NCBI RefSeq assembly: GCF_003334255.1
Contig: NZ_QOWU01000104.1
Length of the DNA: 5,452 nucleotides
Direction: 5' to 3' (one strand)
Source: Escherichia coli
GTDB lineage: Bacteria > Pseudomonadota > Gammaproteobacteria > Enterobacterales > Enterobacteriaceae
The position numbers and the translations under genes were made by a program. This document shows, piece by piece, positions 395 to 432 of this stretch. Within the stretch, counting starts at the first letter, position 1. Every line of letters begins with the position of its first letter. The notes under the pieces were generated by a model. The model worked only from the letters and a program-made list of their open reading frames with translations. It was not told where the DNA came from and did no database searches.

Positions 395-417
395 ACCTGA
401 GGCTCACGGCCTCAGGT
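395..417 (+). terminator. GC-rich hairpin (CCTGAGGC / loop TCACG / GCCTCAGG) followed on the plus strand by a T-rich tract (TTATCTTTATAT)
   Basis: Perfect 8-bp inverted repeat at 396-403 and 409-416 (9 bp if the A395/T417 pair is included), T-rich run at 417-430. The geometry fits an intrinsic terminator for rightward transcription, convergent with the receptor gene whose stop is at 433-435. For the minus-strand receptor transcript the hairpin has no following U-tract. Confidence 0.3.
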
Positions 418-432
418 TATCTTTATATACTC

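Follow-up and report, generated by a model that had tools for sequence, protein, structure and literature searches.

The window analysed here, a stretch of 5,452 nucleotides from Escherichia coli, is 100% identical to the E. coli G6/7 plasmid NZ_CP060062.1. It carries ireA, which encodes a TonB-dependent siderophore receptor, and, next to the stop codon of this gene, a short stem-loop followed by the remains of two insertion sequences. The features are as follows:

1..243, minus strand: left end of an IS3-family element, with the start of orfA at approximately 190 (annotated as IS3 family transposase)
244..370, minus strand: first 127 bp of IS1414 (IS256 family), comprising its left end and the transposase start, with the ATG at 298 (homology)
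371..394, unstranded: native 3′ flank of ireA, from the IS1414 end to the hairpin (sequence comparison)
378..393, unstranded: 16-nt block CTGATTACTACACTGG adjoining the stem (comparison between lineages)
395..417, unstranded: stem-loop ACCTGAGGC-TCACG-GCCTCAGGT (inverted-repeat search, folding, variant comparison)
418..432, plus strand: T-rich tail or spacer (TATCTTTATATACTC) (tail score, variant comparison)
433..2481, minus strand: ireA, TonB-dependent siderophore receptor of 682 amino acids, stop codon at 433-435 (open reading frame and RefSeq annotation)

The sequence at 244-370 is 100% identical to an intact copy of IS1414 (locus L003, 2500-2627) and represents a fragment of this element that has been cut off by the IS3-family insertion. 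The first-pass annotation had described the region upstream of the hairpin as IS256-family debris, which holds for the IS1414 fragment, while the outer 243 bp belong to a different family, IS3. The boundary of IS1414 was taken from the end of homology with the intact copy, which terminates at ...GTACAGGCTC, corresponding to position 370 of the window, and is followed by an unrelated flank after ...GGCTC; a repeat search at seed 9 found no inverted repeats of IS1414. Since IS1414 ends at 370 and the native flank begins at 371, the hairpin, which starts 24 nt outside the IS1414 end, lies outside the insertion sequence.

The transposase genes of both insertion sequences run leftward, with the hairpin behind them, and no plus-strand gene is found within the 394 nt upstream of it, positions 1-394 containing only minus-strand IS genes. 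A sigma-70 promoter-like site (150-179, plus strand; TTGACG, 18-nt spacer, AATATT; 9/12 matches) is located within the IS3-family end, antisense to orfA, and is aimed at the hairpin approximately 215 nt downstream. Promoter-like sites are no commoner in the window than in shuffled sequence. Inverted copies of one IS3-family element end occupy both extremities of the window, 1-243 and 5375-5452, and share 96% identity over 78 bp. In NZ_CP060062.1, IS3-family elements in inverted orientation enclose a segment with ireA, an IS100 fragment and a yagK-like gene, an arrangement resembling a composite transposon.

The ireA gene is iron-regulated. A Fur-box-like motif, AAATCATTATCATTA, seen by eye at 2504-2518 (minus strand), 23 nt upstream of the ireA start, fits this regulation; a search of the strict 19-mer Fur-box consensus with up to three mismatches gave no match. 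A second perfect 9-bp hairpin is found at 3199-3222 (TAAGGGCGT / ACGCCCTTA). On the minus strand, where its tail is GCTCGTTTTC, it resembles a terminator, and it is located 33 nt past the stop codon of a YagK/YfjJ-like open reading frame (3255..3977, minus strand), upstream of the ireA promoter region.

Structure and strand asymmetry of the stem-loop

The arms of the hairpin, 395-403 and 409-417, form a perfect inverted repeat of 9 bp with six G-C pairs, which is extended to ten pairs with a 3-nt loop when T404.G408 is counted. Its stem energy is approximately -16.6 kcal/mol on the plus strand and -15.7 kcal/mol on the minus (ireA) strand, while RNA folding of the hairpin region gives -18.7 kcal/mol (z -3.47) and -21.0 kcal/mol (z -4.29) for the plus and minus strands, respectively. 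When a minimum of 9 bp and a loop of 3-8 nt are required, two perfect stems are found in the window, at 395 and 3199, both of which sit shortly 3′ of the stop codons of open reading frames. Dinucleotide shuffles contain 0.137 such stems per window, with at least one in 10% of the shuffles. A generic terminator scan of the whole window returned eight sites, against 5.0 +/- 2.2 expected, and is thus not enriched; the 395-417 hairpin is its top-ranked site. The hairpin is more than a chance structure, and its initial description as a perfect GC-rich stem with a T-tract just past the stop codon of the receptor gene stands. In a permissive Rfam scan of the whole window the hairpin was unmatched, the sole match being a chance snoRNA hit inside ireA. 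An extended minus-strand structure joining the stop-codon region and the 16-nt block appeared in the single-sequence fold, was absent from the alignment fold, and was discarded.

On the plus strand the stem is followed by TATCTTTATATACT at 418-431, in which T accounts for eight of the 14 bases and for five of the first eight, with a longest run of three. This tail is T-rich but interrupted, and positions 418..432 double as the 15-nt spacer between the ireA stop codon (433-435) and the stem. The tail on the ireA strand, ACCAGUGUAGUAAUC, has U at only two of its first eight bases, short of the U-rich tract of an intrinsic terminator. The two strands were scored with a d'Aubenton-Carafa-type discriminant, d, its energies derived from ViennaRNA. 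For the variants of the hairpin described below, the values are:

Window type: d +14.5 (plus), d -21.9 (minus)
L001 type: d +14.5 (plus), d -21.9 (minus)
L004 type: d +12.0 (plus), d -21.5 (minus)
Plasmid remnant (L005): d +0.6 (plus), d -22.5 (minus)
pO157 form (L007): d +0.6 (plus), d -23.1 (minus)

The claim that the hairpin is terminator-like in the plus orientation is borne out by these scores (+14.5 against -21.9 in the window). The plus strand combines a G+C-rich stem and short loop with a U-rich tract, which is interrupted and leaves the plasmid remnant at a borderline +0.6. The plus-strand tail scores 3.39 for the window hairpin, compared with 3.09 for the plasmid remnant lineage, and the terminator scan accepts the ireA-type hairpin while rejecting the plasmid-type copy located directly behind a tolA-like gene. 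The canonical terminator face of the hairpin is, on these scores, probably the plus strand, with the stem conserved and the T-tract not. The native 108 nt downstream of the hairpin on the ireA strand contain 11 C and 15 G residues (76% A+T) and appear to hold no obvious Rho-utilisation (rut) site. A literature search for ireA in combination with terminators retrieved nothing relevant and no transcript 3′-end data for ireA.

Distribution and conservation of the hairpin module

A 60-nt query around the hairpin was searched against 5,426 complete E. coli genomes. The module is present in 533 of these, with a median of one place per genome, and all of its genomic matches are located at ireA or at a short receptor remnant that is unannotated or annotated as 'hypothetical'. 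Among plasmid records, 257 plasmids are matched as well. A dispersed palindromic repeat, of the REP or MITE-like kind, was ruled out on the basis of the single median place per genome and the constant location at ireA or its remnant. Four sequence variants can be distinguished, namely that of the window, a type that differs by a single change in its tail (L001), a type with 92% identity (L004) and a plasmid type with 84% identity, the pO157 form of which carries a 5-nt deletion.

The contexts in which these variants occur differ on the side facing away from the receptor gene. The chromosomal island at L001 has a different element of the IS256 family, then a 110-bp AT-rich stretch, the hairpin and ireA. 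At the chromosomal locus L004, where ireA shares 92% identity, the order along the ireA strand is hairpin, AT-rich stretch and the start of a co-directional YadA-like gene, and no convergent gene is present at this locus. In the IncI-complex and pO157 plasmids (L005-L007), nikB is followed by a tolA-like gene on the plus strand, the hairpin and a 3′ remnant of a receptor gene on the minus strand. The tolA-like gene encodes a 143 amino acid protein annotated as 'TolA C-terminal domain' and its stop codon is located 61 nt upstream of the hairpin, while the receptor remnant shares 85% (or 79%) identity with ireA. The tolA-C-like gene, hairpin and receptor remnant of these plasmids constitute a true convergent pair, and a stem-loop lies between convergent 3′ ends in L005, L006, L007 and L070. 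NZ_CP060062.1 itself retains the 5′ part of the tolA-like gene approximately 4 kb upstream, with the pile of IS elements between this gene and the hairpin.

The combination of nikB, the 143-aa TolA C-terminal-domain gene and the receptor remnant (L005 2525-3272, L006 and L007) is found in 208 E. coli and 234 plasmid records, the latter including Shigella, Klebsiella, Salmonella and Citrobacter. The tolA-C-like gene is nearly clonal, with at least 95% identity in approximately 600 plasmids and otherwise below 60%. An intact copy of the plasmid ireA paralogue was found in none of the searched E. coli genome and plasmid records. A conserved AT-rich stretch of approximately 110 bp precedes the hairpin at the ireA loci without IS1414 at this site (L001 4917-5000, L004 2919-3000 and L070 4263-4340), and was removed in the window at 370/371 by the IS1414 insertion. 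In L004 this stretch is located upstream of the co-directional YadA-like adhesin gene and holds promoter-like sites on both strands.

That the hairpin might form part of the terminal region of the IS256-family element is refuted by its presence at ireA loci lacking IS1414 at this site and by the end of IS1414 at 370. A role in insulating ireA from the IS debris is likewise weakened. The hairpin predates the insertions, so insulation cannot be its origin, and the transposase genes read away from it.

In the IncK2/Z plasmid pSTEC405_1 (L070), the tolA-like gene is followed by a hairpin of the plasmid type, behind which 8 nt of the receptor remnant are left; the 110-bp AT-rich stretch comes next, and then a hairpin of the ireA type with a complete ireA gene. 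It is the only arrangement found in which an intact tolA-like gene and an intact ireA converge. The two hairpin modules are thus in tandem, approximately 150 bp apart (L070 4155-4400). Compared with L005, pSTEC405_1 has gained a 2,917-bp ireA segment at a point 5 nt into the receptor remnant; both junctions carry AAAT, and the far end of this insertion falls in the loop of the other hairpin of the window, at 3199-3222. The duplication of the hairpin appears to be a by-product of insertion into the end of a paralogous gene. A function of the tandem modules as a recombination site was considered and rejected, as the junctions are those of a simple insertion with AAAT and the far end is unrelated to the hairpin at 395-417.

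Homology between the ireA and plasmid lineages begins at window position 378 and extends through the 16-nt block and the stem into the receptor gene, while to the left of 378 the two lineages are unrelated in sequence. The block at 378..393 is identical in the ireA lineage and the plasmid lineage with 85% identity, shows one C-to-T change in L004 and is 5 nt shorter in pO157. The outer eight pairs of the stem are invariant in all four sequence variants; the loop differs between lineages at most positions, and the 15-nt spacer containing the T-tract shows several changed positions and a 2-nt indel. At the approximately 15% divergence of the adjoining coding sequence, the chance of finding the 16 bases of the stem unchanged is approximately 0.07 by our own arithmetic (0.85^16), and that of finding the stem together with the 16-nt block unchanged is approximately 0.006. 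The invariance of the stem alone is weak evidence, and the same conservation would be seen had the two lineages exchanged this sequence recently.

In the plasmid lineage the plus-strand RNA keeps a continuous stem of 10 bp, in which C-G has been replaced by U.G at pair 9 and U.G by A-U at pair 10. The minus-strand RNA acquires a C.A mismatch at pair 9, which reduces its stem to eight pairs and the stem energy to -12.1 kcal/mol, compared with -14.6 kcal/mol. This asymmetry in pairing, which comprises two substitutions, would favour selection on the plus-strand RNA.

IreA orthologues elsewhere, from Providencia, Budvicia, Pasteurellaceae and others, share at most approximately 60% protein identity, a level reached in Providencia, and their gene flanks are too diverged to be aligned with the window. 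A stem-loop is located within a few tens of nucleotides of the stop codon in nearly all of them, many with a canonical U-tract and several without one or with the tract on the opposite strand. A stem-loop past the IreA stop codon thus seems to be a commonplace arrangement, to which the orthologues add nothing specific.

Possible roles of the hairpin on the two strands

On the plus strand the hairpin resembles a canonical Rho-independent terminator in its G+C-rich stem of 9-10 bp, short loop, energy of approximately -16.6 kcal/mol, T-rich tail and positive d. It differs in that the U-tract of the window hairpin is interrupted, with no run longer than three, and in that no plus-strand gene precedes it; read on the ireA strand, it has no U-tract at all. 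Two known arrangements offer closer parallels. One is that of the bidirectional terminators of convergent gene pairs in E. coli (Ju et al. 2019, as cited in bioRxiv 10.1101/2022.10.23.513370), where stem-loops between convergent genes position a collision-driven bidirectional termination (bioRxiv 10.1101/2022.10.23.513370). As in those terminators, to the extent that they are portrayed in the citing article, a single stem-loop lies between the 3′ ends of the rightward tolA-like gene and the leftward receptor gene of the IncI-complex and pO157 plasmids, and the hairpin does not resemble an intrinsic terminator in one of its directions. Unlike them, again as portrayed there, the partner gene of the window is truncated and, through IS insertions, displaced to approximately 4 kb away, and L004 lacks a partner. 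The second parallel is with the stable 3′ stem-loops without U-tracts that protect Rho-dependent transcripts of E. coli (Dar and Sorek 2018, PMC6061677). The stem on the ireA strand, just past the stop codon, at -15.7 kcal/mol and with no U-rich sequence after it, is similar to these, while the native sequence downstream of ireA differs in lacking a C-rich, G-poor, rut-like stretch.

Our preferred reading, at moderate confidence, is that the receptor cassette ends in this hairpin, a gene-end stem-loop acting as a convergent-gene terminator toward the plus strand, and that on the ireA mRNA, where it has no U-tract, it forms a 3′ cap or pause site. On the plus strand it would constitute an intrinsic terminator of moderate quality, its stem of approximately -16.6 kcal/mol and U-rich tail releasing RNA polymerase that approaches ireA from behind. 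The ancestral source of such polymerase would have been the convergent tolA-like gene on IncI-type plasmids. In the window, plus-strand transcription might instead issue from the pile of IS elements, where the promoter-like site at 150-179 points in that direction. On the ireA strand, the U-less stem 15 nt past the stop codon would serve as a pause or collision point rather than as a canonical terminator, and may block 3′-to-5′ exonucleases, thereby defining and stabilising the 3′ end of the mRNA. The hairpin would already have existed when the insertion sequences came in. The analysis establishes the structure and position of the hairpin, that it is independent of the insertion sequences, that it is strictly tied to the receptor gene and that its scores differ between the strands; termination of transcription or stabilisation of the mRNA, on either strand, is what we infer.

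Two further claims of the first-pass annotation are accommodated in part. That the hairpin stops rightward transcription before it enters ireA would be sensible in view of the tolA-C-like gene that converges on it in related plasmids, but the window holds no plus-strand gene upstream of it. That it is a weaker bidirectional terminator for ireA is plausible in the form of a non-canonical role, but a canonical one is not expected from a strand without a U-tract and with d of -21 to -23. Counted against the preferred reading is that d is lowest (+0.6) in the very lineage in which a plus-strand gene precedes the hairpin. Furthermore, L004 keeps the hairpin without a convergent gene, and a plus-strand role is therefore not needed for its retention.

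The main rival to this convergent-gene reading, possible if clearly less probable, holds that the hairpin serves ireA only, as a protective 3′ stem-loop to which an mRNA ending further downstream, through Rho or otherwise, is trimmed back, the T-rich spacer being incidental and merely part of an AT-rich 3′ untranslated region. It would account for the hairpin being kept by the receptor gene across three unrelated downstream contexts, one of which lacks a convergent gene, for the drift of the spacer and T-tract beside a fixed stem, and for the weakest T-tract being found in the copy beside the tolA-like gene. It fits less well with the two stem substitutions, which keep the plus-strand pairing and cost the ireA strand one pair, with the absence of a C-rich, G-poor stretch from the native downstream sequence, or with pSTEC405_1, where the first copy of the hairpin is kept beside the tolA-like gene with only 8 nt of receptor sequence adjoining. 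The converse, that the hairpin is purely a relic of the plus-strand intrinsic terminator of the tolA-like gene, carried along with the receptor gene and without a role for ireA, is unlikely. The positive terminator score on the plus strand only, the G.U asymmetry that favours this strand and the convergent tolA-C-like gene of the plasmids are all in keeping with such a relic, yet chromosomal ireA loci without the tolA-like gene retain the stem with 92-99% flank identity, and the homology between lineages starts 17 nt upstream of the stem and continues on the side of the receptor gene rather than that of the tolA-like gene.

Less likely again is a functionless palindrome, arising by chance or hitch-hiking. 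At least one such stem occurs in 10% of the shuffled windows, and four near-clonal variants provide little independent evolutionary testing; against this, both perfect stems of the window lie just 3′ of stop codons, a 40-nt block comprising the 16-nt leader and the stem is unchanged at approximately 15% coding divergence while the loop and spacer have changed, and one double change preserves a pair. We regard as extremely unlikely that the hairpin belongs to the terminal region of IS1414 or to another mobile-element or recombination site. Its position 24 nt from the IS1414 end and the module copies that flank the 110-bp AT-rich stretch in pSTEC405_1 might suggest as much, but comparison with an intact copy, whose flank is unrelated, places the end of IS1414 at 370, the hairpin is also found where IS1414 is missing from this site, the tandem copies are explained by the 2,917-bp ireA insertion, and the module is neither dispersed through genomes nor matched in Rfam.

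A further reading, which we consider very unlikely, is that of a small plus-strand RNA in which the conserved, single-stranded 16-nt block would act as the seed and the stem and U-rich tail would form the 3′ end. Derived from a 3′ untranslated region or transcribed as an antisense RNA, it might originate from the tolA-like mRNA on the plasmids, or from a promoter in the AT-rich stretch upstream at the other ireA loci, and would be perfectly antisense to the 3′ untranslated region of ireA. Upstream promoter-like sites are inconsistent between loci, with one in L004 and none in L070, and in the window the stretch upstream of the candidate RNA has been replaced by IS1414.

The hairpin is a real and conserved feature, but one of an ordinary kind. 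Its delineation places the junction of IS1414 with the ireA cassette at 370/371 and assigns the hairpin to the 3′ flank of the receptor gene, which matters little beyond annotation. It also provides a defined element for studies of ireA expression or of antisense read-through from the neighbouring insertion sequences. Furthermore, the 3′ remnant of an ireA paralogue, with its hairpin facing the tolA-like gene, is carried by hundreds of IncI-complex and pO157 plasmids and represents a marker for the history of the ireA cassette.
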